DNA from: Raillietiella orientalis
Lineage: Eukaryota
Reading direction: 5' to 3'
Assembly: GCA_036172245.1 (NCBI GenBank)
Contig: JAYWIR010000029.1
Location: forward strand, 124,001 to 188,000
Length of the DNA stretch: 64,000 nt
Position 1 is the stretch's first letter; each line of letters opens with the position of its first letter. The notes under the pieces are model-generated. The model searched no databases, had not been told where the DNA came from, and saw nothing but the letters and a program-made list of their open reading frames with translations. This document shows, in pieces, positions 4,852-30,281 of the stretch. Both the position numbers and the translations under genes were made by a program.

Positions 4852-5028
4852 CGGTCAGGGGGCCTGTAGCCTCATACACAGGACCTCCAAAGAACTGGAT
4901 TTTTCCATTCAGGAAGTCGGAGATGGGCATAGGGTAGGTGGCCAGCAGCCTGACAAGGGAGCTGGCTGCACCATACAAATCCTCATCTGTAGGAAACCGG
5001 TGGACCATCTCCGCAATGCGCCGAAGTT
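4852..5028 (-). CDS. P4HA: P4HA coding exon 3
   Basis: TTTTTGCAG acceptor. Translation LRRIAEMVHRFPTDEDLYGAASSLVRLLATY...GPLT matches the conserved FPxxEDxxGAAxALxRLQxTY motif. GTAAG donor. Confidence 0.93.
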
Positions 5029-5141
5029 CTGCAAAAAGAGGGAATGGCTTATGAGCGCGGTCACTGACAGAAGGAACGGTCTCGCCTCAGGAAATAAGTG
5101 GGTGAGAGGTTTCGTCTCTTCTGGCTCTAGTGCTAAGAGTT

Positions 5142-6791: not shown

Positions 6792-6833
6792 TATCAGTGG
6801 AATCTTCATTTACGTTATCAGTGGAATCTTCAT
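6792..6833. repeat. Short tandem duplication TATCAGTGGAATCTTCAT x2
   Basis: Read directly; period ~24 bp. Confidence 0.8.
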
Positions 6834-9800
6834 CTAAAGGATAAGCTGAACAGTAGTTCACAGATCCCACGCCTTTAAGAACACCAGCTGCAAACAGCTT
6901 CAGGGAAATAATCGGTGCGACGAATGTCATTCCCATCTTTCCATGACTTTGAATCTTTCATTGACTTCAGAAAGATACCGGCAGAAATTTGAGCGAAGGC
7001 TCAAAACTACAATTGTGGTTGAAGCTTTCAGAAACCTCGGATGCAAACAAAGATGCACAAATGTTAGGAAGCAACAAACTCTGCCACTGACTGTTGCCAA
7101 GACGGAGACCTCCTCCTTGGCAACAGTCAATGTCAGAGTTTGTGGCTTTCCTGATTAATAATTTTAAGGGTTGCTTTGTCTGCGACCCCCTCAGAGGTGC
7201 CTTGGAATGATTTTTCGAGCTCTGTTTGCTTAAAAGGAATCGTTTACTCCGGAAGGTCTCGACGCACTCGAACGACTCGAAAATGCATCACCCTGTTGCT
7301 CAAGGTGTTTTACCAAAGACCTCGTGCGGAGCATGTTGGCAACTTGCAGATGAACCTACGACGGAAAGTTTCATTCGTTTTTACTTGACCATTGCCTTGA
7401 AAGGAGAGATAGAGACAACACGCACTCGGCAACTCAAGGAGAAACATTGCGACAACATTGGTGTCCAAAGTTCACAGACTCTCAGCGGAAAGACGAAGAA
7501 AGAATAGCAATTTTCTACTGGCCTCTGGAAAGTTCAGGAGATCAGATAATTTACTTAATACGGAAGAAAATCTCCAGCTGACCAGAGTTGAGGCAGGGTT
7601 TTTTTTTCCCCGAGAGTTACCCGGAGCGAGGTGAAAACTTCCGAAGTGCCTTTTGGAAGTTCTCCAGATTGAGACACTGATTAAAGGACTTTGGAGATTC
7701 CTCCATAAGAGCGTAGTTGGGTCATGAACATAATTGCATTCGGGAGGCATTTCCTTCGAGTTGCTGCATAATGCGTCGATTGGACGCCTGACTCTTTATG
7801 TACAAGACATGCATTCGCGAACCTGATCCTTAGCCTATCACTGAGATGAGCTCACAGAGCATTTTCAGAGTGAAAACAGATATGACTACAGGAACAGTAT
7901 GATTAAAGCCTGTGTTTTCCGAGCTAGTGACCTCAAACTTGAAGCTTGGGAACTTTGTTCTGCGCTTACTCTTCCCAAGTTTCTTGTCACTTTTTCCATC
8001 TCCATACTCCGATGGTTTATAGAAGATCTTTACAAGGTCATCACGTATCGTCCTAACTCGATCGAGTCGAATTCAGTCGATTGCAACTTGCACGACTCTT
8101 GAGGCCCCGAAAACATCTTTTATCTGTTCCTCGAACTTTCCATTTCAAAAGGTCCTCTGCGACCTTTCTTGTTTCAGGAAACGATCGTAGAAACTTTCAC
8201 TTTCTCAACAAACTGTATCGAGAAAGCTTACGGTTCCTAACGATGCAAATGAAGCAAAAATGGATTCAAAGATGAAACCACTTTGCCTTCGTGACAGTCT
8301 TCATTCAGCTCGCTTTGCTGGCTGGAAATTCATTATCTCTGGCAGGATCTTAGTTCTCTCTCTTTATGTATTTCCCACGCTCAAACTCTAGATGGAGATC
8401 ATTTTACAAATTCTGGTACGTTCTCTCGTTCACTGAATTTCTGCTCTGCCGGCTGTACCTATCTACCGGGTCTCATTTTGAAGCGAATCAACCAGTTGGA
8501 AAAAATCGATACCCTTGCAGTTTGAGAATTTTCGAGATGAGCTGAATTCATTCTCCCCCGAATTAGGAAATAATCTTCCTCTTCCTCCTCCCACCCAAAT
8601 GGTATAACGCGGGTCCGTAATGTTCATGAAATCTGCCTCGAAGACCGAACAACTTTTAAAAATGAAACTCTTCCCACTGGGGCTATTGCTGAATCACACG
8701 AGAACTCCCAGACATGATCAAATATCCGAATGCTCACATAGGAGCAGTAATTTTCCGAGCAAACTTTCTGAATGGATATTTTTCCCGCTAAGAGATTTCA
8801 GAGGTGATTTCCCTAATAGTACTCAGAGCATTTGCCTTTCCTCGTAGCAGGATTACCAGTTTTAGGGAATTATGTGACAGAAATTGACTTTTTTTTTGCA
8901 TCCTTGTTGCATGAAGAGCGATGTGTATCATGCGAAAATCAATGAAAGGAAAGAATAGTAAATGGGTAGGCACAAAGAAAGAGGATATGATTCTCTGCAA
9001 TATCCCAACAGCATCTGGATTTTCATCAAGAAAAAACGAATATACAAACCAAGAAAAATTTGTTCCGCCACTGAAGCAATTACAAAAGCACGGAATTAGC
9101 CCTTATACTGGCAGATCAGTAAGTGGTACTTGATGACCTGAATGCCTCAGATAGTTGCGGACGCTCGGGAACATTAGTGTGCACGCATGGACACATGTAA
9201 CACGGAAAGTGGCTGCCAATCAGCGGATGAAGAAAGGATTTCGAATTTTCGAAACGGTATGCTGTCCGAACAGAGAAGCATGAATAAAGCAAGAAATTAA
9301 AGAAACATGGTCTCATGGAGTCCCGAAAGAACTGTGAACTGTCTTCAGGATGTTGAAACACCCGCGACCATGGGAACCGCGGAGTGACCTCACAAGCAAG
9401 GCGGCGGATTTTCAGTAATCCCTAAACTTTCGTTGTTCGAAACCCTTTCGAGATAGTTCTGATCGGAACAACGTCATCTAGAGTGCTGCATTTGACTTCG
9501 GAAGCATTCACGTGATTACTGGGAGATGATGGAGATTTGATTTTCTTTGCTTAGTTGGCATCGATGAACATGGGCAAGCAATCGATCGCTTGCTTACAGT
9601 AGCCGAATGGCCACTCCAGAGCCAGGAAAGCGGCAGTTGAGATTGGACGTGAATAGTCTTGAAATAAAGATCAGCTTTCGTTAAAATCCGAAAGGGATAA
9701 TATTCACGCTGGATTTCTTGCTCGAGGAGTGCACGTGAATTTTATCTTGAATGCAAAATAAATCGGAATGCCTCATAACTCTCCATTTCCGAGCAAGTAC

Positions 9801-10476
9801 TTCAGGACAACGAGCTGCTTTTTAGAGTTCAAGTTCTGTTCACTCACTATAATCAATAATTTCTACTAAACTGGAGTGAAAGGACTGACTTTCGAATTTC
9901 GAAAGCCTCCAGGGACCTGGAGTCAGTGCTCACGAAAAGCGCTTTTTACTCGAATGAGAGTTACTTTCACAGTGTATGCATATGTTGATGACTTCGGTCC
10001 TTGTGAATGGAGGTAGCTGACGATTAACTAAGGCGTTCGGAATGTTCTTTCGAGTCAATGAAATGCTGCAGCCTGCTGGAGATTCTAAACAGGACTTAGC
10101 TTCATACATAAAGATCTGTTATGTGTTACTGAGTTCATATGATCCCTAAGATCCTCCTAATTTCGATTGCTCATCCCTATGCAGGCGGATTTAGTAAAGG
10201 ATGCCTAATTTGCTAAATAGGACACTTCATCTTGGTCTCCTTTCTGGGGGTGGTTGAGGTTCCAGCCCCTGCTATCGCAAAAGAGAAAGCTGCTCGTGAA
10301 GCAGGTGACCCTATGAAACGCTTCAGTTTTGCCCAAAGCAGAACCGCCAAGAACACGGAAGAACTGCTCTCCCAAAGATTCTCACCGACACAAGAGAGCA
10401 GCATGGCTAAATATTCTCTCTTCTGGGACAATTCGCATTTCTCGAGATCGATAGCAATCATACGTCATATACGCAC

Positions 10477-10619
10477 GCGAGTTCTTTGATTGATTCAGCA
10501 TGCGTTCCACTGGAGACCATTGGATCCTCAAAGAACGGATGAGCTTGTAGGCATTAATAGGATTGGAGATGTAACTCCCTATCGTGGGTGCCCGTAAATC
10601 CTGTGTCTCGTCAAGGAAA
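10477..10619 (-). CDS. P4HA: P4HA coding exon 2
   Basis: TTTTCAG acceptor. Translation FLDETQDLRAPTIGSYISNPINAYKLIRSLRIQWSPVERML contains the hallmark NPINAY/FxLxxRL...W motif. GTGCGT donor, phase 1. Not in the ORF track. Confidence 0.92.
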
Positions 10620-12674
10620 CTGAAAACAGAACGGAATCATTATAAATTGTTCCCGATGAGATTGAAGCGTCAGTAATCGAGAAACCTGAAATCGGCTTGG
10701 GAAACAAAACGGGGGAGGAAGAGGATAATTCCGGGATATTTTCTTGTCATCCGTCAAGACCTGGGATTCTTACCCGAGAGTTTAAGGACGAAAATTAAGG
10801 ATGAAAAGAAAATTCCGGCAGCAGAAGTCTCGAGTGCCATCAGCATCATTAATGATGTCATCGGAACACTTGTCAATTCTCCTCACAACCTTATGACTAA
10901 AGTTTCCTTTCGAGAAACTTCTACTCGCCACGTTTCTGTCATTGAAGTTGTGAATTCAGGCAAGCATTCCGGAACATTGATATTCGTCGCACTCGCTTTC
11001 TGAGGAATAACAGGACTGCCAGAGACAACTGGATAGAGATGTAGAAGGACCCGTAAAAACTCTAGTCTGAAATGAGGCTGATGAAGAATTGGGATTGATT
11101 CGGAGAGTTTGCCTTCTGCGCTTTGAGCCCCTCGTCAGAATTCACCAAGCTGAGTGTTTCATCCTTCGTTCATTATGGAGTGTTTAGGCATTCTCAGAAA
11201 GTATCTCCAAGATTACATAATTAATAGTGATTCAAAAAACTGATTAGTGATCAAATGATCACTGTTTATTTAACTTAGCGTCATCACGACTGAATACTGC
11301 TATCATTTCTTTAAGGAGTTGATTATCGGACGAAGCAATCAAGACTTCAGTTGCAAATGGTTCAAGTGATCTGGAGACTGCACATGTTTCATCTTTAGTT
11401 TCATCTCATGAAAATCAACGGTGCCATTGCAGTCGTTTAAAGAGGAAAAAGATGGAGTTACTTCGATCAAAGCAGAGCAACAGATGCATCGGTGATTCAC
11501 AAGTGTCCAATAAAGTGGTGAAAGTGAGAGGGCGCGTTGAAAAATGCCACTGGAAACCAACTTCTCCCTTAGCTCCTGAACGTCACTTGGATAACCAGGA
11601 ATTAAAACCTTCGAGCCCCGTGGCCACCAGGATTCAAAGCCCGTCCATTTTGTTGTTTTGTCATGTTTTATGTTTTGGTTTCATTAGCATCTGGTAATGC
11701 TTTGGACACATTTTGAGAACAAGGCGGTCGGACATCCATGCTTTAATCAGATAATCTCATGTGGAACCATATATTCGTTCTTGGGACTTAGTTCTTCTCC
11801 AAAACAAGACGAAACAAAGAGACCCAGGAAGACAAGGACTCATATAGTCAGCTTTCTGTCCGCCTCATTTTTCAAGACTCCATTCCCTTTCTAGGAGCTT
11901 CTTTCCCCACAGCTCACTCAAGAACAAGCTCGGGAATACTGAGCAGATTTCCGCAACAAACTTCTGATCGCTGAGGTTCATATGAATTGTTCACATAACA
12001 CTACAGATGCCTTGCTCGTTCCATTTGGATTTTAGAGCATTTTTCTTCCCGTTCCCTTCATAACCACGAAAGTTCTGAAATCTTATCCAGCATATTCCAT
12101 GAAGGAAAAAAAAAATTGGATAAGCAGTATAACTCTGCTGCTCCAGCTGTTTGTAAAATACTGCAAAGTATATGAAATATTTCACATTCGCCATCATGTC
12201 AGCAGCATCCTCTTCGGAAACTGAAGAAGAAATCTGTTGTGACAACAATTCAAACCTTCGTCACTGAGGAAAGAATGCAGTTTTGTGTCCTTCAGTCCTT
12301 AGCACTATAAAACACTTAGAATGCGAATCTTGCTGCAAAGAAACTGAAACACAGAACAAAGAACTGCGGCAGATTTTGTCCCTCGAATGCTGATTGTAAA
12401 CACTGTACTGGGGTCTAGAGCTCCATAGTGTCATCAATAAATTCAATTTTCGTGCTTCAGAACCATCAGCATTATCAGCGGATAAAACGAGCGAAGGAAC
12501 TAGAAAGATAAGGGCGTAAAGAGGCACTAAAAACACTCAAAATCACACCGATGTATGCAGTCTGCTGACGTTTCATAAAGCAGACAACAGGGACAGAAAA
12601 AGACAAAGATTTTAAAAGAAAATGGCTACACCCGTTGCATGAGAATACCAACCACTTTCGAACAACAGCTCGCT

Positions 12675-14867
12675 GAAGAACGGGGGACCTTCGTCTCCCG
12701 CCCGCTCCCCCGGCGCGACCGTCGTCCCTTTTTCTTTTCGTCGTCGTTGTTGCTGTTGCTGTTTGTTGCGGTCTTTTTCAGCACCGTTTCTCCTCGCTCT
12801 TCGTCGTTCCCTTCCGCCTCCACCACGGCCGTCGCGCAACCATCCTCCCGCGGAGGCGCACCGTCCTCCGGAGCGTCCGCGAAAACGCGATCGGGAAGCA
12901 CGCAGAGACGAGGAAACGAAGCTCCGGACAGGAAGAAGAAGAAGAAGAAGAAGAAGAAGAAGAAGAAGGCAGCGGCACGCACGAACTGCAACGCGGGAGA
13001 CGGCGTCGTTCGGGCGTGAATCCGCTGGCGGCGAAGGGAGCGCTGCCGCCGCGTCCGCAACCAACACATCGGTCGATCGATGATGGGACGGACGATCGAC
13101 TGCAGCGGCCCCCGCTCCATTCTCTCCTCGGCCCGAATCTGGCCGCTCGCGAGCCCGGGCGGCGGCCCCTAGCGCGGGCCGACCCCAGGTTCGCCTTCTA
13201 CGAGACCCCGCGTCGAGCGGAGCACAAGCGCGACCGTTCGCACGCCAGGTGGACACGTTCCGCTGCCGTTGGCAAGCAGCGAGCGCGCGGGCACGGCCGT
13301 CTCCATCAGGCGGTCGTGCCTGCGCGCTCGCTGCTCCGGGCGCAGCCGAGCATCCTTCTTCCTCCCGCCCGCATCCGTTCCGAGGCCAGCGGAGCGGCGG
13401 CCACGGGACGGCGGCGCGGATCGGCCAGAGGCTGGCGGTCGGGGCGATCGGCTCTGCCGCCGCCTTTCCCGAGCCAGCCCACCGCAGCAGATGGGTGCGG
13501 TTTCGGCGCAGCCGGGACTCGGCGCGCTGCTCCGAAGACGTCTCTTGGAGCGGAGCGGAGAAGGGTCAGGGGAAGGGTAGGTTTCATGGTTTTCGGCGGC
13601 GCGTGACCCAGTCATCCGTGCCGTTCGCTCGTTGGTCGTCGGTCACACGACGAGAGCGAGTTCGGTTGTCGCGCGGCAGCCACCTGCGCGTCGGAAGCGC
13701 CGCCGCTTTCCGCTGGCGACAGCGTGCTGCGGCCTGCCATCTGCCGCCGCGTCCTCGGAGAGGCACGCGCGCGTTCTCTCTCTCCGGTCGGATGCGTTCT
13801 GGCAAGCCGCTCGGACGCCTTTTGCCTCCCCTCCCTCTTCCTCCGTTCGACGGAGGACCCTGTCGCGCCTCCTCGCTCCCTTTGGCTCGCTTGCGTGACG
13901 CTCGCGCGGCGCGGGTACGACGCGAGTTTGCCGGAAGCTCGGCCGCGGGCCAAAAAGTCGAGGAGAGGAGCCGACGACGACGGATGCTGCCATCTGGTCT
14001 TCGGCACGCGTGCGTGCGTTCGCTTCCTGGGCGACGACCGGGGCGGCTGTTTGCGGAGTCGGCACGACAACTTGTGTGAGCTGGAAGCCGCAGCAGGGTG
14101 CTGCGCGCAAGGGGATGCCGCGTTGTCCGGAGTCCGGTGCGGGCCACGGACGAGTCAGGGAGCGATGGGGACGAATGGAGCAGCCGAGGCGCGACGTGCG
14201 TGCGCCTCCGGGGGCCTCGCTGCGCTCCTGCTGCTTGTCCGTCGACGCGTGCACTCCCGGTCGAGCATGTGCCAGTCGAGCTTCCGCCGGGGGGCCGCTG
14301 CCACTCCGCAAGGCGGACGACGACGGACGCAGCCGGGATCGCGGATCGGATTGACGCTGACGGAGGGATTCGGACGAGAATTCGGAACCGGACGAGCGGC
14401 GCGAGGGGGGGACGCCTTCTTGCGGCAAACCGGCCGCGCATCGTCTGCGGTGCAGTGCGCAGGAAGAGGAGCAGGTGGAGGAGGCTCCAAAGTCCGTATC
14501 CGTTCCGTCGCTTCCCTTCTCGGTACAGCTCGTTCGGTGCGGAGCCGGCCGGGTCGTCGGTGCTCCGCGGGACGTGCGGAAGCGGGAAAAATCCTCTGGA
14601 TCGTCTGCGCGGCGCCTTCGCGCTTGCAGCTGGCGTTGCTCGGGATCGCGGCGGCGGCTGGGTGACGCCGAGAAAGGGAAGCAGAAGAACGCGCTTGGAG
14701 GTGGGAGGGGAAACACTGCTGCTCCGCGATTGCGGAGCATTTCTCGACCAGCCGTGTGCAGGCGCGATGTGGGAGCCTCCCTTCCGGACGGGAGATCGCG
14801 AAGGATGCAGCAACGTGCGGCGCCTGAGCTCCGAACTGGATCCGGAGAGCTGCACTCCCTAGGAAGA
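12675..14867. mobile_element. Non-autonomous GC-rich 2.2 kb element, copy 1 (in P4HA intron 1)
   Basis: Near-identical reverse complement of 22049-24259. Sharp rise in GC and CpG against the flanks. GAAGA at both ends. Internal (GAA)n tract at ~12932-12968. Confidence 0.85.
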
Positions 14868-15516
14868 TTCCTAGAGTCTCATAGAGAAGTCCTGACTGGA
14901 GGTGACTCAAGAAAGGATCCTCAGTTACAAGTGGATAACCGAGAGATGAGAGGAGGTGTGGGTGGATGGCAGCAGAAACGAATGCTGGGGATAGAAATTT
15001 CTTCCTTCCTGCCTCTCGCTGGAGATGCATCTGAGTGGATTCAGAGATCATGCGCATATGTGGGATTACGCCTGGATGATATCTGGAAGATGCCGGCTGG
15101 AGTCACGAAGGGAAGGGAGGAATTCCCATGATTGGATGAATGGAAGAGCATTGCGTTTCTCTGGGAGGCTTTGTGGTCTGCTTGGATCGAAAAACAGGAT
15201 CTCGAAGTGGATTTTGCCTCTTCGTGCGATTTGGACGGATGGGAGGACAGGATTCCTCCCTTTAGTGCCGCCTCGTAAGAGCGTTCTTAAAATGCTCTCA
15301 TCACGAGTGCAGATGCCAGCCTGCTCTGAAGCACTTGAAGGCGCATTGGACTTTTCCACAGGAAGAACGACTCCAAGAGGCTGGACGAAAAGGAAAAGCT
15401 CTGATTCTTATCAGACCGAGGGCACCCAAGTGCGGTGGGAAGTTGGAAGTGTCCGTGTATTTCCGTCACTTGTGAGGAACGTGCACTGAATTCTGAGATG
15501 CGGTACAGACACAGAG

Positions 15517-15524
<8 letters not shown>

Positions 15525-15558
<34 letters not shown>
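15525..15558. repeat. (AG)n microsatellite
   Basis: Read directly; one interruption. Confidence 0.95.
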
Positions 15559-16504
15559 CGAACGCTGTGATCAAAATCACTTTTTCTTTTGCATTTCGAG
15601 GGCTTTGATCCCCTCCCCCCTTTTTTTGCCTTTTTTCGGAATAGGATCGTTGGTATCGAATACGACGAGTCTCTTGGTTAAGTGAAAAAGAACCTCCTGC
15701 AGGCTCCGAGTGACTTCTGCACGGCATGCCCTGGGCAAACTGAGTGAAGGTCAAAAAAAAAAAAAAACTTCTCTTCCGTTCGTCTGAAAATTTCTTCGAA
15801 TGCATCATCCAGCTTCTCTATCCTTCTTTAGCGATTTGTCATGCAAAGCTCCTATTCCACTCTTCGATTCCCTAAAGGGATCGATCGATTACAAATTCTC
15901 TGTGCGGAAAAATGAGATCTCTTTCTTGCGAATTCGATGAACCCACGGTCACTGATAAAGCACACGAGAGACCGTTGCTCTGGCGACCTTGTTCATCTCC
16001 GCTCGCAGGACGTGTTGAGAGCGTGCATTCCCCCGCATGCTGCGTGCCTCTCTGTAACTCGAGAGCGGCGCAGATGTCGACAGCACCTTTCTGGGACGAT
16101 AACGGTCCGTCTCGGAGGAAGCACTTTTTTGTTCGTTGTGTTAAGCGAAGAAGCACCCGCAAGCCAACGAGGTAGGAAACGCATCAGCAATATACCTGAG
16201 TTACGCCATCTGTGGTTGCCTTCACAACAGCATATTGCAGCAAATGCATGAAGGAATGGCGTTATTGATATCTGGCGTGCGTTTCCTCCAAAGCAATGCG
16301 GGAAACATGACCGGCTGACTACTCGTTCCGTACGCGCGGGGAATGTAAGCGCGACCCACGCGTAGTGCCTGCGAACCCTGAATCACAGGAGGATCTTGCA
16401 GCTGCGGGAGAGGGAAATGCCTACTGTGGATACCGTGTCTCAGGAGGACACGAACACGCAAAAATGCATGCCCAGGTGAAAAATGATTCCCTTCAAGTTT
16501 TTAC

Positions 16505-16764
16505 CTTCGTATGACTCCCATTTCCTGAGCGATCAAACTGCCATTGCCAGGCAACATGTCGGAGTGCTCGTTAATGAAATCCTGCAGAGCTGCTGCTATG
16601 TTCTGCTGCAGGTTGTACAGCTGTTCCAGTTCTTCCATAGAGGAGAAAAGCTCAGAGTCCCTGCTTTCATTTATGGAGATGGTTCCTCGGATCGCCCACA
16701 GGAGCAGCCACACCAGCCTGAAGAGCCCTGTTCGGGAATTCCCCCACTCCTCACAAAACCACAT
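16505..16764 (-). CDS. P4HA: Prolyl 4-hydroxylase alpha subunit, coding exon 1 (signal peptide and N-terminal domain)
   Basis: ATG at 16764. Translation MWFCEEWGNSRTGLFRLVWLLLWAIRGT...ELFSSMEELEQLYNLQQNIAAALQDFI has a hydrophobic signal-like stretch followed by the P4HA N-terminal 'FxSxxxxxxL' pattern. GTAA donor at 16504 is phase 2 and matches exon 2. Confidence 0.85.
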
Positions 16765-18459
16765 GGGTCAATCCGGCAAACGAATGTTCACGCCGATGCA
16801 CTGATCTTGGCTTCACTTTGGGCAACTTTAAGCGGAGATGAGATGGCACACAGAAGACCGGAACTTTATCACCTTAATGCACCATAGAGAAACTCGAAAA
16901 CGGTGGTTCCCTTTTCTGTTTTTTTTTTTTTCTTTTTCGCTTCGAGAGATGTCCGCGCCTTCAGTCTTTCTTCGTATCTGCTTCGAGTTGACCCGTGAGC
17001 CTGTTCAGGTTATTGTTCGGATGCCAAGCTGGACCCGCTTTCCGCATCTGAAGCAGCAGCCGCTCGCGTTCGGAGGGGACGGAACGGAATTTACCCACTG
17101 GCTGGTCGCTCCTTAGGGCTGAAGGAAATTCAACCTGAACTTTTTCGTGCAGTTTTCTTCCCTTAGGAAGGAAGAGAAAGATGTGACAGAAAGATGCGCT
17201 CGAGATTCATTCCTACCCTGGAAGGTGTTTCGAGGAGTCTTCATTGCTTTTTAGAGGGGAGTAAAACTTCAGTTGCTTTCAGACGAGGGAGGGAAAAAAA
17301 AATCCATTCTATTCCAGTTCTCCACACTTTTCGGGAAGCTGGAAAGGGTTGGATCCGAATTCCTAGATGCGATATGGGAATCTATACATGGTGTTTCGAT
17401 TCACTGTTCTTTCATGGCTGCACAAGTGTAGGTCTTTTGATGTGGCTTTTCTCAACCACTGTTGCATATTTTATTATTGCTCCTGGGCTAGACCTCAACT
17501 TGTCACCGATTCTCAGACATCTGTTTGCATCCATCTTTCTGAAGACGCAAATTCTGTCTGCTTTTCTATTTTTTCGCTAGGGACCCTTCCGAACGCTGCA
17601 GAAATTTCCGAGCGCCACCGTGCGTGTGAGGACCAGCTCCGGAAAAGGGCCGCTCGACCCCAGAGTGCTTTCCCGTCGTGACAGGCTTGCAGTGGGCTGA
17701 CCAGCCAGGATGGCGTGTTTGAGCACTCTAGGCAAAATGCGCAAACGGGTGGTCTCTTCACGCTCCATCGTTTCGCCTTTTTGCTCAACGCCTCTCCGAC
17801 TCGATGGACACTTTCGAGAAACTCATGAGCTGCTGCCGGAGGAGGAAGGAGCTTCATGCTTTTCCTTAAGGGTTTGCCGTGTTCGTGCTGCCTCAGTGTT
17901 TCCCCGTTGAGAAGTTTCCTCAACTTTCCCATGGCAGATCAACTTTTGGATTCATAGACTGAAGGAATGAGAAATATGAGAGTGTTGTCAATCACTTTCG
18001 TCCAACCAGGGGACGTACTTTGTACAACCATATGGTTTGTGATGGCATCAAGTAAATCTTCCTGCTTGAAGAGTTCGGATTCATGAAGTCAGGGATTTCA
18101 GGGGTTCGTTGTTGTTGCTGGATTCTGTGGATCGTGGACCACGAAACTCATGAACTGGGATGTACGTGGGAAAGCCAGTGAGAGACAAATGCACTCAGAG
18201 TTGACAAAGGTTGACAAAGGAGTGTTCTCAACAGCTATATTGAGTTATTTCGAAACATAGTAGCATCCATTATTTCATATTTTCTCAAGGGAGTCCATGA
18301 GAAGTCAGAGTATTAGAGGATCAGTTCTTCAGAAGTCAGGGATCTTCAAGCACCTTAATGTTGTCTGATATTGCAAATGAAATCCTTGATAATATAGAAA
18401 GTATCTGTGTTGCTCCTACACACGATATGTTCACGTTCCTTCCTTTTAAATGCCATCGG

Positions 18460-19760
18460 TTCATCACCTGGTCACTCTGGGGAGTTTATTATAAAAATGG
18501 CAAACATACAAATAGTAGTGGTAGGACTGTCGGTCCTACCACGCTCAATGAACACGGAACCTACCGTGATGCCGGCACCCAGACCGGCGGGTTCCGCTTC
18601 CGCAACAGAGGGGAAGGGAATAAACTAAAGGAAAATAAAATAGAAATAAATAAATGAATCGAATACTTTCAGGGGTTCTCGAAAAGGGATCATTGTCCAT
18701 TGAGGGGTCTCCTCGGCATCCTTTCCAGGATGCACGCAAGTTCCTTCCAAATGATTCCCAGGTGGGGCCATATCGTGATGACCTTCAGGAAGAGTTTTGT
18801 CTAGTGGATGGTAACTCTTCCGTTCTGGTCACTCCTTGCAGTGCTCCAGGCTGCTACTTGCCGGAGAAGACAGTAAAAAAACTGCTCAGACGCTGCTGGT
18901 AGCAAAATGCAACACGCATGAAGATGAGTTTCCCTACGTCCCTGGAACTGTCCACTGGGATCCGTAGGGCCGTCGCGAAACGTCCCCAAAGGGGCAGTTT
19001 ACGAGCAAGTGCAAAAGGGTTTCGCTTTTCCTGCATCTGTTAGCTCGGATCCGCACTCCCTCTGGTCCAATTGTGCAGACATGCTTTGCATGGGAGACCC
19101 CAGTGCCGGAGGAACCGGCAACGCCGACTCCTGCCGCATCAAGGAGAGTGTGGAGGTGTCCATCAGTACCGTGAGCAATTAGAGTACGTTGTGGGGATGT
19201 CCAGATGCTCTGCCCAGTGGAGGCACTCTGGGTCGCTGCGTACGTGAGTTCCCAGCAACGGGAAAGCACTCAGGGGTGGAATGTTGCAGGTAACATTCCA
19301 CCTTGCCGTTGTGTCACTGCCAAGGACTTCCCTTAAAGAGGGAAAAGGAGGTTGATGAAGCCCAACTGGTATTCGATGCACTGTTGAGAATCTCTTGCAA
19401 CGAATGACGAGTGTTCCTGCCGTATTGCAGACAGGCGAAGTGTTACGCGCTCTTGTTGAACAGAACATGAGAACTGTTCCCTGAACCCAGGCACCATAGT
19501 TCTCGGGAAAGCAGGAGATCCAGATTCTCTTTCACCAAGGCAACCATCTCCCGAAGCTGATACTCGCCATTTGGCCAAGCTTCGGCGGCTGCCGACGAGG
19601 AAGGATGTCGGTCCTCCGCAGCCGACTGCTCTCTCGGCAAGATGTGTTGCGACGCCTTAAGACTTCTCCCTAATGCAGCAGTCGTTCGAGCGTCAGGAGG
19701 CCAACACCAGCATCCCGACTCTGCTAAGTGCCATCGGTTAAACAACCCGTAATACGAATT
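18460..19760 (-). mobile_element. 3' fragment of the same L1/Tx1-like LINE family
   Basis: C-terminal motif RCRKSETLLHLLVNC. T-rich 3'UTR. Terminal AATAAACTCCCCAGAGTGACCAGGTG. Confidence 0.7.
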
Positions 19761-20833
19761 TCAGCTTCCCCTCTGAACATAGTTGCAGTTTTGATCAAGC
19801 GTCCCCGTATTGAAGTTTATATAAAGTTTACATTGACACCCACTCCGCTGGCTGTTTGAGTCAGCACTTCACCAAATCCATCCAGCAGTGAGCAAACAAA
19901 GTAGGCGTTCCATTTGTTTCTTTCAGTCCTTCTTGTCTTCTTTTTCACCAAGTATTGGAAGTCCCAATTGCATTGCTGGCGATAGCTGGCTACATATATG
20001 CATGCAGAGTGACTGCCTTGCGTGACTTTTTTATAGTTTCGAATGTCTTTTCATTCTGCTCTTGACTGAATTTTCGAATCGGATCATCATTTTTATCAAT
20101 GGTCACTGTACAGTTGTAGCCTGCGCTTTTAAAGACTTTTAGAAACATTTAAGTACAGTCTCAACAGCTTGAATACACTTTAAAGGAGATCGGACCATCT
20201 TTAGCTCTAGGGCGAGGCAGCTAGTAAAACTGCCTTTAAATTCCCACCATTGTGCTCGACGAGCACACATATGGAGAGAGATACCATGGATCTTCTAAAG
20301 TGAACAATCCAACAGTTAGCTGCCTCCAACTATCCAGATCTGATTGCCTCCGTGCTCTTCCGGGAAACTGCATAAGTGGTGTGGAAAAAAATCATCGTAA
20401 ACTCATCCTTGCCACCGAAGTCAATCTAGGAGGGCACACCCCCCGTCACACCACTGGAAGTTTTGCACGGAGATGCAAAGGTAATCCATTGATCTTAAAA
20501 AAGAAAGGCATAACCTCGGATGCGTGACCATTGGCATTATCAAAATAGCGAACCAACGGTAACCATAGGAGGAGAGACTTTCCGTAGCAGAATCAGGTGG
20601 AAGTTTATCTACAGCGCTCCCAACATCCAACGAAACGAGGCATGGAAATCCTTAATCGATAAGAACCCACCATGTAATGCGTGGGATTGCACCAGACCTC
20701 CATCCATTTCCTCACCAAAAAGCAAATGCCTATGCCACGTTATATCTACTGCAAATTCATGTGTGCCTGAGGTTTTTCATCTCCTGTATACTTTCAATAC
20801 CAACAGTAAACAAATGAGAGATCGATCTTGCCG

Positions 20834-21369
20834 TCGGTGCCTGAATGGTATGTAACGCTGCCTCACGTCTCAAGTCGTTCTGAGAAATCCTTTCAGCTCG
20901 ACACCAGGAAGGAGACGGTGATCGACTGCATCAAGGAGATACAGACGATGGGAATTCCTGGACAACAACCAAGGGAATCCCACGCGAGATCCTCTTTGCG
21001 AGATGACACCGTCCTGAGGAAACTGGAACGGCGTCATGGTACACGCTGCTGCGCATCGGAAAGCGCACCGGCAGCGTGCCAGAAGACACGCGAAGGAAAA
21101 AAGGGAAAATACGCTTCCAGAGCGCTTCCTGGCTTTCACTCGCGGGAACCCGAGCGTCAGTTCTCGTGATTGCCCGTGGGAATCCCAGGCTGGCAAGAAC
21201 GGCGATGCTGTCAACGCTGAAGGAGGTGGAAGTTCCCAGGAACGAACCAGCTCAGCAGGCCGACGCTGTGTCGATGATCTCATGGTGAACGATGAGCCAG
21301 AACGTCAATTGGGTTTCGAACGACCGGACGCAGACGCACACTGCCGGATCTCCAGAAGAACGGGAGACC
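20834..21369 (+). repeat. ~540 bp dispersed direct repeat, copy 1 (probable decayed LINE ORF1 remnant)
   Basis: Highly similar to 46204-46762. The translation includes IPGQQPR followed by Cys/His remnants, resembling the Tx1-type ORF1 YPGQP/zinc-knuckle region. Confidence 0.7.
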
Positions 21370-22048
21370 AACCTTCAGAGCCAAGCAACACTAAATAAAG
21401 AAAGACCCTGTGTCTAGAGGATGGCTGAGGTTTGGAACTGAGTTCTGCTGCATTCGAAGACATTGCTTTGCTTTGCAACAGGACACGTACTCACTCAAAT
21501 CTCTGATTGCAAAATCAGCAATTCCCGTAGTGCGCCTCTGTGATCATAGCATGGGAGTTTTCCTCCTTCTCTTCTCCACAAATATCTGAGGAATGTTGAG
21601 GTCACGGTTCCCATCATTGCTCCAACATGCCTCTGGAAGTCTCGCAGTTTGCGTCTTTCACCTATTACATTCTCACGCACTGCTCAATCATTCCCGTGTT
21701 TCGATTCTGAATGATTCGACTTTCCTTCAGACATCGCCTTGCCTTCTACTGAGCTCTTTCTTTCCGGTTTGGTTCTTCCCAGCATGACGTTGTTTCTAAT
21801 GATTCGCCCCCAAAACAAAAAGAGAGGGCTGCCGACCCCACTTCCGTGTTGGCACCAACCAGTAGTAATGATCCGCGAATTGACAGTGGCGACATTATTC
21901 GTGTTGGAAGGTGTGTCTGCAGCTCCCTCTAGACGCTTTGATATCTGCTGTTCGCAATCACGATTAAACCTTGAAGCATCCCATGAGCGATTTGTGTTCC
22001 CCTCGCATAAAAGACCCGAAAACTCTGATGGTATCTATAAACATTGGC

Positions 22049-24259
22049 TCTTCCTAGGGAGTGCAGCTCTCCGGATCCAGTTCGGAGCTCAGGCGCCGCA
22101 CGTTGCTGCATCCTTCGCGATCTCCCGTCCGGAAGGGAGGCTCCCACATCGCGCCTGCACACGGCTGGTCGAGAAATGCTCCGCAATCGCGGAGCAGCAG
22201 TGTTTCCCCTCCCACCTCCAAGCGCGTTCTTCTGCTTCCCTTTCTCGGCGTCACCCAGCCGCCGCCGCGATCCCGAGCAACGCCAGCTGCAAGCGCGAAG
22301 GCGCCGCGCAGACGATCCAGAGGATTTTTCCCGCTTCCGCACGTCCCGCGGAGCACCGACGACCCGGCCGGCTCCGCACCGAACGAGCTGTACCGAGAAG
22401 GGAAGCGACGGAACGGATACGGACTTTGGAGCCTCCTCCACCTGCTCCTCTTCCTGCGCACTGCACCGCAGACGATGCGCGGCCGGTTTGCCGCAAGAAG
22501 GCGTCCCCCCCTCGCGCCGCTCGTCCGGTTCCGAATTCTCGTCCGAATCCCTCCGTCAGCGTCAATCCGATCCGCGATCCCGGCTGCGTCCGTCGTCGTC
22601 CGCCTTGCGGAGTGGCAGCGGCCCCCCGGCGGAAGCTCGACTGGCACATGCTCGACCGGGAGTGCACGCGTCGACGGACAAGCAGCAGGAGCGCAGCGAG
22701 GCCCCCGGAGGCGCACGCACGTCGCGCCTCGGCTGCTCCATTCGTCCCCATCGCTCCCTGACTCGTCCGTGGCCCGCACCGGACTCCGGACAACGCGGCA
22801 TCCCCTTGCGCGCAGCACCCTGCTGCGGCTTCCAGCTCACACAAGTTGTCGTGCCGACTCCGCAAACAGCCGCCCCGGTCGTCGCCCAGGAAGCGAACGC
22901 ACGCACGCGTGCCGAAGACCAGATGGCAGCATCCGTCGTCGTCGGCTCCTCTCCTCGACTTTTTGGCCCGCGGCCGAGCTTCCGGCAAACTCGCGTCGTA
23001 CCCGCGCCGCGCGAGCGTCACGCAAGCGAGCCAAAGGGAGCGAGGAGGCGCGACAGGGTCCTCCGTCGAACGGAGGAAGAGGGAGGGGAGGCAAAAGGCG
23101 TCCGAGCGGCTTGCCAGAACGCATCCGACCGGAGAGAGAGAACGCGCGCGTGCCTCTCCGAGGACGCGGCGGCAGATGGCAGGCCGCAGCACGCTGTCGC
23201 CAGCGGAAAGCGGCGGCGCTTCCGACGCGCAGGTGGCTGCCGCGCGACAACCGAACTCGCTCTCGTCGTGTGACCGACGACCAACGAGCGAACGGCACGG
23301 ATGACTGGGTCACGCGCCGCCGAAAACCATGAAACCTACCCTTCCCCTGACCCTTCTCCGCTCCGCTCCAAGAGACGTCTTCGGAGCAGCGCGCCGAGTC
23401 CCGGCTGCGCCGAAACCGCACCCATCTGCTGCGGTGGGCTGGCTCGGGAAAGGCGGCGGCAGAGCCGATCGCCCCGACCGCCAGCCTCTGGCCGATCCGC
23501 GCCGCCGTCCCGTGGCCGCCGCTCCGCTGGCCTCGGAACGGATGCGGGCGGGAGGAAGAAGGATGCTCGGCTGCGCCCGGAGCAGCGAGCGCGCAGGCAC
23601 GACCGCCTGATGGAGACGGCCGTGCCCGCGCGCTCGCTGCTTGCCAACGGCAGCGGAACGTGTCCACCTGGCGTGCGAACGGTCGCGCTTGTGCTCCGCT
23701 CGACGCGGGGTCTCGTAGAAGGCGAACCTGGGGTCGGCCCGCGCTAGGGGCCGCCGCCCGGGCTCGCGAGCGGCCAGATTCGGGCCGAGGAGAGAATGGA
23801 GCGGGGGCCGCTGCAGTCGATCGTCCGTCCCATCATCGATCGACCGATGTGTTGGTTGCGGACGCGGCGGCAGCGCTCCCTTCGCCGCCAGCGGATTCAC
23901 GCCCGAACGACGCCGTCTCCCGCGTTGCAGTTCGTGCGTGCCGCTGCCTTCTTCTTCTTCTTCTTCTTCTTCTTCTTCTTCCTGTCAGGAGCTTCGTTTC
24001 CTCGTCTCTGCGTGCTTCCCGATCGCGTTTTTGCGGACGCTCCGGAGGACGGTGCGCCTCCGCGGGAGGACGGTGCGCCTCCGCGGGAGGATGGTTGCGC
24101 GACGGCCGTGGTGGAGGCGGAAGGGAACGACGAAGAGCGAGGAGAAACGGTGCTGAAAAAGACCGCAACAAACAGCAACAGCAACAACGACGACGAAAAG
24201 AAAAAGGGACGACGGTCGCGCCGGGGGAGCGGGCGGGAGACGAAGGTCCCCCGTTCTTC
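22049..24259. mobile_element. Non-autonomous GC-rich 2.2 kb element, copy 2 (inverted, upstream of P4HA)
   Basis: The ORF set mirrors copy 1. Differences I could see: two substitutions, one fewer GAA unit and a 21 bp tandem duplication near 24047-24090. TCTTC at both ends. Confidence 0.85.
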
Positions 24260-27200
24260 CATGAGTTGTTCTTTCGCGTTGTTTGCCTGTGTCGGCGTTA
24301 GAGGAAAGAGTGTCGTGCTCGTTGGCGTCTGAGAGGGATTTTCCGGAATAGCTTCGTTTCGCTGCCCGATTGATCTTCTGTTTTTCCTGTGGGTAGTCGG
24401 TTTGACCGCACGCTGCCTCAGGGCAGCGGAAGCTCAGGACGCACAATTGCTTGAGACGTACGCAGCTAGGCGCGTCGAATTCGGGTGCTCTGCGACGCGC
24501 CTGAGCGGGCGGTGCTCGCAAAAGGGAGTGCAGGAGAGCAGAAAGGTAGTGTTCCCTGACCACGGCCCTTGGGACCGTTCACTGAAATCCAACTGGTTTT
24601 CTCACAGGAGCGGACGGAAGGTTAAGGTCGCTCGCATAGGGAGGGGAAAGGGCTTTTCTTTATGCATGCTTTTAGAGGGAAAGATCCCGGAAATGAGGGG
24701 CCTCCCTTTCGCCTTCCAAGCTTCCCGGATCTCTGCGAAGGCGTGATGTTTCACTTCATTGGTTGGGGAGGGAAAGGGGATCCAAGTGGAACAGAGGGAG
24801 GGCTTCATTCTGGATCTGCGAGGTGGAAGGGGATGGAGGAGAGCTCCTGACGGGATTCAGGAACTGAGGAGGGCTCCTCGGGGGGATTGAAAGCTGCTCA
24901 CCGCCCGCCTTCCTCTGGATACAGCAGCCGCCTCTCGTTGGGACCTTGCGATGCAGTCCACTCGCTCGTTGCTTTTTAGGGGTGGTGAAGCCTGCTGTCA
25001 ACTTCCGAGAGTCTGGAAGACGTTTCGTCCGTTAAGGAAAAGAAGGTCCTTCCTCATTCCTCGCTCCCCTTTCCCCCCTATCTGCTCGGCGCCTTCTGCA
25101 GCTGAGCAGGTATGTGGTGCGCCCCTCTTGAATCCGCTGGCGAGGAGACGACCTCCCACAGCGGAAAGATGGGAGATAAGGCTCGCAACGGGACTGCGAG
25201 CACACCCGCTTTCTCCAGGGAAGCACCACGCACGGGGTGGCCCGTTCCTCACGGAGGGCTTGAACAAACCGGGGAAGAGGCAAAAGAGGGAAGACGGTCC
25301 GAGAGATCGAATGGCAAGGCCTTTCGTTGTTTCCTTACTGATCCAGAGCCGCGGAGGAGGATTCCTCAAATCACGAGAGCGCCATCTCGAGGAAAAGGGT
25401 GAGAGGTCTGGTAGTCACAGAAAAGGGCTCGGTGTGCATCTTGACAGAAGTCCTTCTTCCAGTGAAATCATTTTCTGGGTAACGTAGTGTCGGAAGAAGA
25501 AGGAATGGACACGAAGCTCTTGGGAACGTCTTTTCTTAAAGAAACGAGTTTTTTTGGAGAAGAGGAGGAGGGAGGGAAAGAGGAGGGGAGGGGTCAAATC
25601 ATAAAGCCCTACGGTAAGCGCGTGTCTTTCCCACTTTCTCATGAGCGGAAGAACAATCGAAGATTCCATCAGCAAGTCATCTTGAAAGAGTCCTTGAAGA
25701 AGTCCACCTTGCCCGTGAAACGGAGACGCGATCAATAGCATCATTCTACGACGCGGCAACGGAAGCCATAGATCGAACTCCCGGGCAACGGATGCTTATT
25801 ATTTATCCTTGAGTTCCGTAGTCAGCCCTCTGGATGTCCTTTGCGCAAAGTTTTCTGTGTTCTTCCATTTTCTGAATTCCGAAGCATCGCAGGCTTCTTC
25901 CGTTTCCTTGATCTTCATTTTTCCCTCCACTTCGTTTTTCTTCCCGTCGGGAAGCTCCCTACCGCTTACTTCTTCTTCCTGTTCCTCCTCCAGAAAACCG
26001 AACCCTTTCCGGACACCGATGCATATTTTTGGTCCATTCCGTTGTTTCTGCTAGCCCCCTTTCTCGATGATGCAGTTTCGGGGCATTCGAACGACATGTT
26101 TCAGATCTTCGAGGGAAAGGAAGGGATGTAACGAAAAGCTGAAACTTGCTCTGGTTAGCCTGCCCCCAGCCTCTCTCTGCGTTCATCACAAAGAGCGTGA
26201 ATAGGAAGGATCTTGCAGATGTGTTTAAGGGAGAAAAGGCCTAAGCGTGTTAATCGGCAGGGGACTGCAGCGACCCATTCCCTCTTGTCTTTCCCAGGTT
26301 CTGGCAAAATCGCATTCCCCTGAAGAGTCGGAAACAGATTTCCTTATTCAGGAAAGGCGAAACCAACGTCTCCACAGTGGGACAAGAGGGAGTCCTGAAG
26401 CGAGAAGAGACGAGCGGGTTCACGGGATTTACTGCTCGAGGTCTCAGAACACTCGCTCCTTTGGGTTCGACAAGAAACTCGCGCTCTCTTGTGCCACTTC
26501 CTTCCATCTCGTTTTCGGTCCAGATTGTGTTCCCAGAGTCGCGCTTCTTCCAACTTGTCTCCAGCTCGGAGGCATGCACGCACATCATGGCCTGAGATTG
26601 TGGCCAATCCCGAGGATGTCTGCCTGCCGACAGCAAAATCTGTCTTGCAGATCTCTTTTCAATTCCTCCTCTGGATCATCCTTAAGGATCTGTTCAGTTT
26701 GAAGAAGCGTTATCTTCGTTGCTGAAGTCCTCAAAGGGTTAAAACTTTACGCACCCTTTGTGATCCAGTGAATAGAGATGCGCGTAGGAGCATTCCGCTG
26801 TAGGTGTTTTCTTAAGGACTGCTGCATTAAAGCAACAATCAGTCATATCCTAAAATTCTGGCCATGCCAGAATATCATCTTGGACATCCTGACATTGGGT
26901 ATGTTTGGAGGACTGCAATCTCAGTTCCAACAGTTGCCACTCTGTGCCAAATTGTGACTTCCGTAAGGTATACCTGAGTATCTAATCCTTCGGCGAAGCG
27001 CTGGCAGCGAAGAATTTCTCTCATTGCTGCCGCGCATCTGTCACATGATGGCGGGATTCTCTTTCTCCTCGAGTCAACCGCCTTCACTTTTGGAAGCCTA
27101 CCCTTGGATATCCTACCTCCTCAAGAACTGGAATGTTTGGCGGCAGGAGACATTCGAGTCTTGAGTTGCCACCTTGAAGATGAGCTCAGAAGAACTTCGT

Positions 27201-29500: not shown

Positions 29501-30281
29501 GCAGCAGGCACTGCAACCACATGACTGGAGGGACAAGTTTACCTGGAGACTGCGAGACCTGGGGAACGGAAGCATGCATCTCGCGCCTCCTGCTGGACTG
29601 GGACGCTCTTCGCCCGGGTTGGAAGCGCTTAGCAAGGACACGGACGACGACGACACTCCTGAAGAGCTCGTGCGGTGCGATGTTTTTTCGTCCCATATGC
29701 GACTTCACCGCACGCTGCAGCCACCATCGGCCATCCTGATGATACGGCCGTCTCCGACAACGACGAGGCGGCCTTCCACTCACCCCAGGGGCGTCGGGAA
29801 AGGAGGACGGAAGGGAAGCTACGGCGCTCATCGGGAAAGGACCGAGGGTCGGGAACACTGGAGACCTGCCTAGAGAACCTTCCTAGCCCCCATCCCCGGT
29901 CGTACCCCTAATTTTTAGCGCCTCCTCCTTCTGGTCGCACCGGAACGCCCCTCCCTCCTGAACGAGAGTGCGTATCGCAATGGACCTCTCTCGGTTCGCT
30001 TTTTATTGAACACCCACTTTTAGCACGGGCGTTCATTTTCGGCAAAAAAACAAAAAAATGCTCTGGAGTGACCTTCTGATGCCGAACTTCCTGGCCATTC
30101 ATCGAAAATGAAGGGATGAAAGGTACAATAAGAAGGGATCTGTTTGCTCGAAGGGAAAGTTTCTGGGGACAGAGCCAGATGGAGGGAGAGAGGCCTGCGT
30201 TTCCCAAAATCAATGCGTAAATGGAGGGTGGAGCGGTCCAGGATCACGGTAATGAACATGACTGCCAGTTCCCGAGACAGG
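29501..30281. mobile_element. 781 bp non-coding repeat element, copy A
   Basis: Near-identical reverse complement of 43927-44707 (mirrored ORFs, coordinate sum 74208). CAGG near both ends. Confidence 0.8.

Follow-up and report, generated by a model that had tools for sequence, protein, structure and literature searches.

A GC-rich, non-coding sequence of 2.2 kb is present twice, in opposite orientations, in the window of Raillietiella orientalis DNA (the whole stretch of 64,000 nt that was analysed), and both copies are bounded by the same direct repeat, the pentamer GAAGA. The sequence looks like a young mobile element, an impression based on two copies only. We tentatively read it as a discrete non-autonomous insertion unit that would integrate at GAAGA, using either a staggered cut of 5 bp or a crossover core of that length, an interpretation to which we give slightly less than an even chance. 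The promoter and first exon of a prolyl 4-hydroxylase alpha (collagen-hydroxylase; P4HA-like) gene lie between the two copies. The features of the locus are as follows.

10493..10630, minus strand: exon 2 of the P4HA-like gene (Pfam P4Ha_N and profile)
12675..14867, plus strand: copy 1, 2193 bp including both GAAGA pentamers; situated within P4HA-like intron 1, antisense to the gene
12675..12679, plus strand: GAAGA, 5' junction of copy 1
12932..12968, plus strand: (GAA)12 microsatellite in copy 1 (11 units in copy 2, at 23948-23981)
13275..13335, plus strand: internal hairpin of 61 nt (stem 28 bp, loop 5 nt), which recurs unchanged in copy 2 at 23581-23641
14863..14867, plus strand: GAAGA, 3' junction of copy 1
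14868..22048, no strand: spacer between the inverted copies, 7181 bp, with the P4HA-like promoter region and exon 1
16505..16764, minus strand: exon 1 of the P4HA-like gene (ATG, hydrophobic signal-like stretch, ELFSS...L N-terminal helix, GTAAAA donor)
22049..24259, minus strand: copy 2, 2211 bp, in reverse complement to copy 1 and 5.3 kb upstream of the P4HA-like start codon
22049..22053, minus strand: GAAGA, 3' junction of copy 2 (TCTTC on the plus strand)
24042..24100, minus strand: tandem repeat of a 21-bp unit, 2.8 copies long in copy 2 and shorter by one unit at the corresponding place in copy 1
24255..24259, minus strand: GAAGA, 5' junction of copy 2 (TCTTC on the plus strand)

The two copies form a nearly identical inverted repeat

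A blastn comparison of the window with itself aligned 12675-14867 with 24259-22049 at 98.8% identity over 2214 columns, and a repeat-pair search identified an arm pair of 1933 nt (12935-14867 and 22049-23981) that is 100% identical. The copies form an inverted repeat with a spacer of 7181 bp (7.18 kb). A MAFFT alignment reduced the differences between them to two substitutions (G/A at 12881/24032 and G/T at 12926/23987), one GAA unit and one 21-bp tandem unit, the latter being found in copy 2 (24071-24091) and missing from copy 1. Every one of these differences sits within ~260 bp of the 5' end of the element, and the chance that both substitutions fall within the first 260 of 2190 bp is ~0.014. 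A simple picture of two fresh insertions leaves this clustering of the substitutions unexplained. As the 2.2-kb arms flank exon 1 as an inverted repeat that is perfectly identical over 1933 bp, gene conversion between the copies would be possible. The opposite-strand placement of copy 2 was absent from the original prediction and was added by the follow-up.

Apart from copies 1 and 2, the 64-kb window yielded neither another copy nor a decayed one, nor a shared terminus, and no other site in it matches either element terminus at up to 3 mismatches. The window also carries two other young dispersed repeat pairs, of 99.6% and 97.7% identity, showing that recently copied repeats exist in this genome.

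GAAGA flanks both copies at compositional boundaries

Both copies read GAAGA-ACGGGGGAC...CACTCCCTAG-GAAGA, and the unit between the pentamers (ACGGGG...CCCTAG) is 2.19 kb long. If the preceding G is included, copy 2 has a 6-bp direct repeat (GGAAGA). The same 5-mer stands at both ends of a copy-length segment at 74 of 61807 window positions (0.0012), and the 64000-nt window contains 172 + 197 GAAGA sites on its two strands compared to 62.5 expected per strand. Chance does not account for the shared pentamer. As GAAGA occupies ~172 of 64000 positions per strand, it is unlikely that a 5-bp target-site duplication at random targets landed on GAAGA twice. Local alignments of the 60-, 300- and 1000-bp flanks scored no better than dinucleotide shuffles (109, 191, 92, 185, 134 and 10 of 200 shuffles, respectively, matched the observed score). 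At the element termini, no inverted pair of at least 14 nt was found to touch the ends, TG..CA ends are absent from both copies even within the 5-bp boundary ambiguity, and neither copy has an A-tail. The original prediction that both copies are GAAGA-bounded (at 4/4 junctions), that identity stops outside the pentamers and that TG..CA ends, TIRs and an A-tail are lacking is therefore confirmed, as is its estimate of about two substitutions and two repeat-length indels between the copies.

The element also differs from its surroundings in composition. Copy 1 has a GC content of 0.68 and a CpG o/e of 1.27, compared to 0.45-0.49 and 0.73-0.83 in the flanks, and 4-mer log-odds drop from +0.4 to +0.6 inside the element to -0.25 to -1.1 outside at all four junctions. 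Maximum-likelihood compositional change points, obtained with a model trained on the centre of the element only, are offset from the four homology junctions by +6, -14, +17 and -6 bp. The weakest step (change-point score 91.7 compared to 165-230) is at the outer flank of copy 2 (24260-25259), which is mildly GC-rich. As a copy in its native context is not expected to end at such a boundary, this suggests that both copies are insertions and that the unit looks foreign at both sites.

Copy 1 lies in the first intron of a P4HA-like gene

The N-terminal exons of the host gene were identified with a profile of 26 homologue N-termini, used to search the whole window as 2018 six-frame segments. Exon 2 matches this profile (E = 1.3e-8, positions 74-114) and Pfam P4Ha_N (E 6.1e-6, 26.5 bits, cut-off 25.3). 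Exon 1 matches the profile (E = 1.9e-5, profile positions 10-52) and has no match in Pfam. The positions of the two exons place copy 1 inside intron 1, and this placement fits a simple insertion into an intron. Among the spacer ORFs of at least 45 aa, no protein family scored above cut-off and none besides P4HA-like was detected.

The gene structure also bears on whether the second copy, or its position, was made by the assembler, with the 1933-bp identity resulting from polishing with multi-mapped reads. The 100% identity over 1933 bp, the restriction of all differences to the repeat-rich 5' 260 bp and the presence of three near-identical repeat pairs within one 64-kb window would agree with such an artefact, which we nevertheless consider very unlikely. 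The window contains no N, and exons 1 and 2 of one gene flank copy 1 in the correct order and on the same strand, indicating that this junction pair is not a mis-join. The copies differ by a 21-bp unit, a GAA unit and two bases, indicating that they were assembled from distinct reads, and all four junctions are base-clean with a common pentamer, which neither collapse nor mis-joining predicts.

In bacteria, replicative intramolecular transposition produces inverted copies flanking an inverted segment. The inverted, nearly identical 2.2-kb arms might similarly be parts of a single block of 11.6 kb (12675-24259), which would be a long-TIR or composite transposon, a DIRS-like element or the product of an intramolecular replicative transposition that inverted the spacer. 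DIRS-like elements are described as carrying inverted terminal repeats in the cited part of PMC13465315. This explanation is hardly credible. No target-site duplication surrounds the block, as the outer pentamers adjoin CTCGCT to the left and CATGAG to the right, and neither an RT nor a recombinase or transposase is encoded in the spacer. The orientation of exon 1 in the spacer matches that of exon 2, so that the spacer is host DNA and not inverted relative to the gene. Moreover, the pentamer is also found at the inner arm ends, where a single TIR element does not need it. As specific candidates, a TIR DNA transposon of 11.6 kb was rejected because there is no direct repeat outside the arms and no transposase, and a DIRS-like retroelement because the 7.2-kb spacer between the inverted arms lacks RT/YR and holds host exon 1.

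The element is non-coding and no mobilising enzyme was found in the window

Open frames of up to 424 aa occur across all six frames of the element, so the original statement that it has no recognisable ORF holds for coding signal and not for open frames as such. None of nine element ORFs matched a Pfam family, no codon-phase GC signal was detected in the element, and the length of the longest ORF was reached by 14.7% of 300 shuffles, meaning that it is not longer than chance. The element is non-protein-coding, and its earlier description as a discrete, non-coding and young unit was upheld. Searches for RNA genes gave no Rfam family at gathering score, no tRNA gene, no tRNA or Pol III-type head on the element and no rRNA gene anywhere in the window to which an rDNA spacer-derived fragment might be joined. 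No homologue of the element was found in the sequence collections searched. The internal hairpin, with a stem that is 89% complementary, folds at -42.2 kcal/mol compared to -27.3 ± 2.5 for shuffles (z -5.97; 0/200 shuffles as good) and gave only sub-threshold matches to miRNA models.

No recombinase, transposase, HUH protein or intact RT was found among the 143 window ORFs of at least 100 aa or among 79 + 119 shorter ORFs in the 14.8-42.5 kb region, and no RT or endonuclease with the 3' end of the element was found in the window.

Comparison with known mobile elements

The element resembles Cryptons, which lack TIRs and LTRs and for which short terminal direct repeats (4-6 bp), the same in every copy, are described; in the cited parts of PMC3212892 and PMC13465315, these repeats are interpreted as recombination cores or as microhomology with the target, and non-autonomous Cryptons are reported to exist in animals. 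The element has GAAGA at 4/4 junctions (n = 2 copies) and neither TIR nor LTR. In contrast to Cryptons, it is represented by two copies only, no tyrosine recombinase of an autonomous partner was found among the 143 + 79 + 119 ORFs of the 64-kb window, and inverted binding arms of 11-13 bp are not apparent next to its putative core. The claim that identical short terminal direct repeats are a Crypton trait applies to fungal and oomycete Cryptons, whereas the animal Cryptons (CryptonA/I) are reported to be without terminal repeats in the cited part of PMC3212892.

Koshi non-LTR retrotransposons, reported in the part of PMC3812793 consulted to target TTC microsatellites, or possible non-autonomous riders of these, share a GAA-type target preference with the element, which carries an internal (GAA)12. 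However, the flanks of the element are a single GAAGA and no microsatellite, and it has no 3' A-tail or repeat tail and no Pol III-type head.

Helitrons are characterised by 5'-TC...CTRR-3' ends, insertion between A and T without flanking duplication and a 3' hairpin. The 3' end of the element (CTAG) agrees with CTRR and is preceded, at a distance of 11 nt, by a short imperfect stem, and TIRs are lacking. A Helitron was rejected because the 5' end is ACGG (or GAAGA) and not TC, the flanks are G/T/G and not A..T, and the pentamers are direct repeats; the 3'-terminal fold is no better than that of shuffles (z -0.10, 88/200). An LTR retrotransposon or solo LTR was rejected given the lack of TG..CA, the identical 'TSD' in both copies and the inverted orientation of the copies, and a SINE or LINE-dependent retroposon given 0 tRNA genes, 0 Rfam families at gathering score and the absence of a tail.

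Insertion at GAAGA or a single local copying event

If the unit is a young non-autonomous element whose integration uses a specific 5-bp sequence, two modes could be envisaged. A GAAGA-preferring endonuclease or integrase might make a 5-bp staggered cut, in which case the pentamer would be a target-site duplication. Alternatively, strand exchange might take place in a 5-bp core common to element and target, as proposed for Cryptons, and one pentamer would then belong to the element. With either mode, the enzyme would have to be supplied in trans, as none was found in the element or elsewhere in the window. The unit has been inserted into two unrelated sequences, in each case at a GAAGA that is now found on either side. 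Against this interpretation, only two copies were examined and their inverted arrangement at 7.18 kb is unexpected for two independent insertions of a low-copy family. The absence of other copies and of a mobilising enzyme from the window, the lack of homologues in the collections searched, the reported lack of terminal repeats in animal Cryptons, the weaker compositional step at the outer flank of copy 2 and the clustering of the substitutions also weigh against it.

We know of no case of a germ-line, kilobase-long templated insertion with TSD-like junctions. Such an event would nevertheless account for the arrangement of the copies, and we regard it as a serious, though somewhat unlikely, alternative: one copy would be a one-off local copy of an older GAAGA-flanked insertion, made by replication template switching or templated insertion (FoSTeS/MMBIR-type) or by re-integration of a microhomology-derived DNA circle, with the pentamers serving as microhomology at both switches and no recombinase or repeat family being needed. 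Near-identical inverted copies just 7.18 kb apart are what a single local event gives, and the window has two copies only. As GAAGA is common in the window, a matching pentamer at a nearby target would be easy to find. In the cited part of PMC2621351, the hallmarks of MMBIR are microhomology of 2-5 bp at the junctions and segments inverted by switching to an inverted template, and fork-stalling sites are said to include structures of the type seen in the element, which holds a strong hairpin and (GAA)12; the pair shows 5-bp junction microhomology, an inverted copy within kilobases of its template, and a hairpin and triplet repeat in the copied segment.

Microhomology, proximity and inversion are thus present, whereas a native donor context was not seen and compositional change points were found at 4/4 junctions. 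Unlike in FoSTeS/MMBIR, one pentamer stands at both junctions with the target otherwise intact, mimicking a target-site duplication; both switches must have used the same pentamer and the return must have hit the point of departure. Both copies end at compositional boundaries and neither looks like an arbitrary native piece, so that the donor must still be a discrete GAAGA-flanked insertion, and the pentamer coincidence at the donor is not removed. The original proposal of a sequence-specific non-autonomous element is therefore supported in that the unit is discrete and shares its pentamer, but an inverted pair 7 kb apart would also result from a single local microhomology-mediated copying.

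Implications

A more far-reaching version of the insertion model, which we consider unlikely, is that the unit represents an undescribed animal family that is site-specific at GAAGA and uses Crypton-like chemistry, with a circular intermediate and with a recombinase that acts on a core of 5 bp, and that the inverted pair at P4HA exon 1 forms a recombination-prone, switch-like cassette. If true, this family would have the terminal direct repeats which animal Cryptons reportedly lack. If copies throughout the genome are all GAAGA-ended, the element would be a sequence-specific animal element without TIRs or LTRs and with termini of the fungal/oomycete Crypton type, a combination that Kojima and Jurka did not find in animal Cryptons according to the cited part of PMC3212892, and this would also provide a handle for finding its recombinase. 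If there are no copies beyond these two, the pair would be an unremarkable local duplication that carries a neat signature of microhomology. Whatever the mechanism, recombination between the copies could flip the promoter/exon-1 segment; this would invert exon 1 and disable the gene, making the locus a candidate structural polymorphism.

An Inverted Pair of a Discrete 2.2-kb Unit

Self-comparison of the window aligned 12675-14867 (copy 1, plus strand, 2193 bp) with 24259-22049 (copy 2, minus strand, 2211 bp) at 98.8% identity over 2214 columns. In a repeat search the same pair appeared as inverted arms (12935-14867 and 22049-23981) that are 100% complementary over 1933 nt, the remainder consisting of two shorter stretches at 98%. 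Together the copies form an inverted repeat with arms of 2.2 kb and a spacer of 7181 bp (14868-22048), and GAAGA is found on either side of each copy, at all four junctions. Both analyses confirmed the coordinates and end sequences of the original prediction, to which the opposite strand of the second copy is an addition. At copy 2 the terminal repeat can also be read as 6 bp (GGAAGA).

In a global alignment that included the flanks, the two versions of the unit differed in four respects only: copy 2 has an additional 21-nt tandem unit, there is a G/A substitution (12881 in copy 1, 24032 in copy 2) and a G/T substitution (12926 and 23987, respectively), and the GAA repeat differs by one unit. 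Every difference falls within ~260 bp of the 5' end of the element, on the outer side of each arm. The two substitutions both belong to these outer 260 bp, where they adjoin the two tandem repeats; such clustering has a chance probability of about 0.014. Gene conversion between the arms may have homogenized their inner 1.9 kb, or the vicinity of the repeats may be mutable.

Outside the pentamers the flanks of the two copies are unrelated. When 60-, 300- and 1000-bp flanks were compared, the observed similarity was matched or beaten by 109, 191, 92, 185, 134 and 10 of 200 dinucleotide shuffles. Anchored identity between the flanks was 7/12 and 9/15 upstream and 4/12 downstream, which is too weak and too post hoc for us to claim a target similarity extending beyond GAAGA.

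To compare the element with its surroundings, one k-mer model was trained on the element centre only and a second on distant window sequence. Relative to the four points where homology ends, the maximum-likelihood compositional change points were offset by +6, -14, +17 and -6 bp, and the 200-bp log-odds fell at every junction. The weakest step is on the outer side of copy 2, where the flank (24260-25259) is mildly GC-rich. Since a copy in its native context is not expected to end at a compositional change, both copies appear to have been inserted as the same discrete, sharp-ended unit.

No further or decayed copies were detected in the 64-kb window (nhmmer, E ≤ 10; sensitive blastn, E ≤ 1). 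An exact scan with the 20-21 nt termini gave no match in metagenome, prokaryote-genome or viral contigs, and plasmid and phage records searched by blastn with the element yielded none either; these sequence searches lend no support to an origin from bacteria or phages.

Position of the Copies Relative to the P4HA Gene

Pfam searches identified P4Ha_N and 2OG-FeII_Oxy_3 domains on the minus strand of the window, which together represent a collagen-type prolyl 4-hydroxylase alpha gene (P4HA); it is this gene that marks the window as animal DNA. At E ≤ 0.001 the C-terminal exon retrieved 2484 relatives, the top-ranking one being 52% identical; a protein search with a P4HA exon among longer proteins gave none out of 287 candidates. 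Pfam alone confirmed exon 2 and did not confirm exon 1. From 26 full-length relatives, a profile of the N-terminal 130 residues was built and run against the complete six-frame set of 2018 window segments. Its two matches, both on the minus strand, were 10385-10636 at profile positions 74-114 (E 1.3e-8) and 16504-16767 at positions 10-52 (E 1.9e-5). These two pieces are collinear, and the next best segment had an E value of 1.3. In exon 1 the ATG is followed by a hydrophobic, signal-like stretch.

Mapped parts of the P4HA gene
347-16764, minus strand: gene extent, from the mapped exons
347-511, 561-758, 1836-2357, 2563-2793 and 4784-5026, minus strand: exons mapped by tblastn with relatives
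10493-10630, minus strand: exon 2, from Pfam and the profile
16505-16764, minus strand: exon 1, from the profile, with the ATG at 16764 and a GTAAAA donor near 16505

Because exon 1 and exon 2 flank it, copy 1 is located within intron 1, contributing 2.2 kb of the approximately 5.9 kb of this intron. Copy 2 is located 5.3 kb upstream of the ATG, so that the promoter and exon 1 of P4HA are bracketed by the inverted pair.

The collinearity of exon 1 and exon 2 across copy 1 argues that this copy is correctly assembled, and we consider it improbable that the pair is an assembly artefact. It also means that the spacer is not inverted relative to the P4HA gene, which speaks against an origin by replicative inversion. 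The same orientation argues against the pair and spacer being a single 11.6-kb element, a long-TIR or DIRS-like unit, a reading that we regard as very improbable.

Composition and Internal Anatomy of the Unit

The element has a G+C content of 68% and a CpG observed/expected ratio of 1.27, compared to 45-49% and 0.73-0.83 in its surroundings. Open frames of 169-424 amino acids are present in all six frames, and the length of the longest was reached by 14.7% of 300 shuffles. TGA/TCA is two-fold depleted (15 observed against about 36 expected), which accounts for long open frames in every frame. Counted over 13000-14860 against dinucleotide shuffles, TGA occurs 9 times (19.5 expected) and TCA 6 times (16.5 expected). 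None of nine long ORFs matched a Pfam family (one listed match, E 0.15), a protein-database search with the 424-amino acid ORF gave none among 8000 scored candidates at E ≤ 0.001, and a codon-phase G+C pattern was absent. With no family match, no codon-phase signal and an openness explained by the TGA/TCA depletion, a coding reading was rejected; the element has no coding capacity.

No Rfam family reached its gathering score in the element, and the window contains no tRNA genes. Near the 5' end are a (GAA)12 tract and the 21-bp tandem unit. The ends carry no terminal inverted repeat, TG..CA or A-tail, and folds of the two ends were no better than those of shuffles. The element also contains a strong internal hairpin:
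13275-13335 (23581-23641 in copy 2): near-perfect hairpin of 61 nt with a 28-bp stem

Its folding energy is -42.2 kcal/mol (z -5.97), a value equalled by none of 200 shuffles, and it folds better on the forward strand of the element because of three G-T pairs there. Interpretation as a miRNA was rejected, as matches were sub-threshold only (the best scored 46.5 bits, where the gathering score is 78). One 22-nt hairpin arm occurs exactly in three metagenome contigs; these contigs are 67-70% GC and the alignment ends with the 22-mer, and the matches were dismissed as chance.

Other Features of the Window

Two further young repeat pairs were observed, neither of which has GAAGA ends. A 781-bp repeat forms an inverted pair (29501-30281 and 43927-44707; 99.6% identical, 13.6 kb apart) with no evident TSD. 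A repeat of ~540 bp forms a direct pair (20834-21369 and 46204-46762) that is ~97.7% identical and differs by an 18-bp indel; the first of these copies is situated in the spacer that separates the element copies. Decayed RVT_1 fragments on the plus strand (36917-37126, E 0.0049; 39234-39776, E 0.0003), both under the Pfam cut-off, sit in a stretch of 54-58% GC, and 38213-38377 is weakly similar to 39959-40124. An open frame at 42692-43327 (plus strand) has weak AA_permease_2 similarity (E 0.0049, under the cut-off) and may be a decayed SLC7-like exon. GC content falls to 0.355-0.38 in an AT-rich block at 50001-56000, where AT skew is negative; elsewhere the window has 45-50% GC.

GAAGA and the Possible Mode of Integration

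The same 5-mer occurs at the start and end of a 2193-bp segment at 74 of 61807 window positions (0.0012), and segments of random length between 500 and 5000 bp also give 0.0012. GAAGA occurs 172 times and TCTTC 197 times in the window, against 62.5 under a uniform expectation, an excess of about threefold. For each insertion, a 5-bp duplication at a random target would hit GAAGA in the right orientation with a probability of roughly 0.003. The observation is thus real and the pentamer shared by the copies non-random, which requires a mechanism; this could be a preference for the target, a core for crossover, or microhomology. A literature search for GAAGA as a transposable-element target site returned no relevant paper by title.

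The element was compared with known kinds of mobile DNA. It fails the tested hallmarks of LTR elements or solo LTRs, DIRS elements, TIR transposons and SINE-like retroposons, and a Helitron reading was likewise rejected on tested hallmarks. Its terminal anatomy is shared with fungal and oomycete Cryptons, whose terminal direct repeats of 4-6 bp are read as recombination substrates or as microhomology with the target (PMC3212892, PMC13465315). Animal Cryptons, in contrast to the GAAGA-ended element, are reported without terminal repeats (PMC3212892). No recombinase partner was found within the window: none of its 143 ORFs of at least 100 amino acids, nor of the shorter ORFs examined from 14.8 to 42.5 kb (79 + 119), encodes a recombinase, transposase or HUH protein. 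Koshi elements, described as LINEs specific for GAA/TTC microsatellites (PMC3812793), are a second possible functional parallel; the element differs in having a single flanking pentamer and no tail.

In the main rival explanation, one of the two copies was inserted earlier, and the other was made from it once, nearby and in inverted orientation, through microhomology, either by template switching or by re-integration of a circle. The proximity of the copies and their inverted orientation fit this explanation, and microhomology of 2-5 bp and inverted segments are given among the hallmarks of MMBIR (PMC2621351). One pentamer would however have to serve both junctions, and the donor's own pentamer pair would still be unexplained. 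We consider such a local copy possible but rather unlikely.

The original prediction, a sequence-specific element mobilized in trans, probably via a circle recombining at GAAGA, is plausible, though based on two adjacent copies in inverted orientation. Our leading reading, which we hold tentatively, is that the element is a young non-autonomous mobile unit using GAAGA in its integration. The pentamer could have been duplicated by a 5-bp staggered cut at a target that the unit prefers; alternatively, crossover could take place within it as a core of 5 bp, as has been proposed for Cryptons. The data establish a discrete unit with sharp ends, a non-random pentamer and no coding capacity, located in the intron and upstream of P4HA; its mobility in trans, the chemistry of integration and any circular intermediate are inferred.
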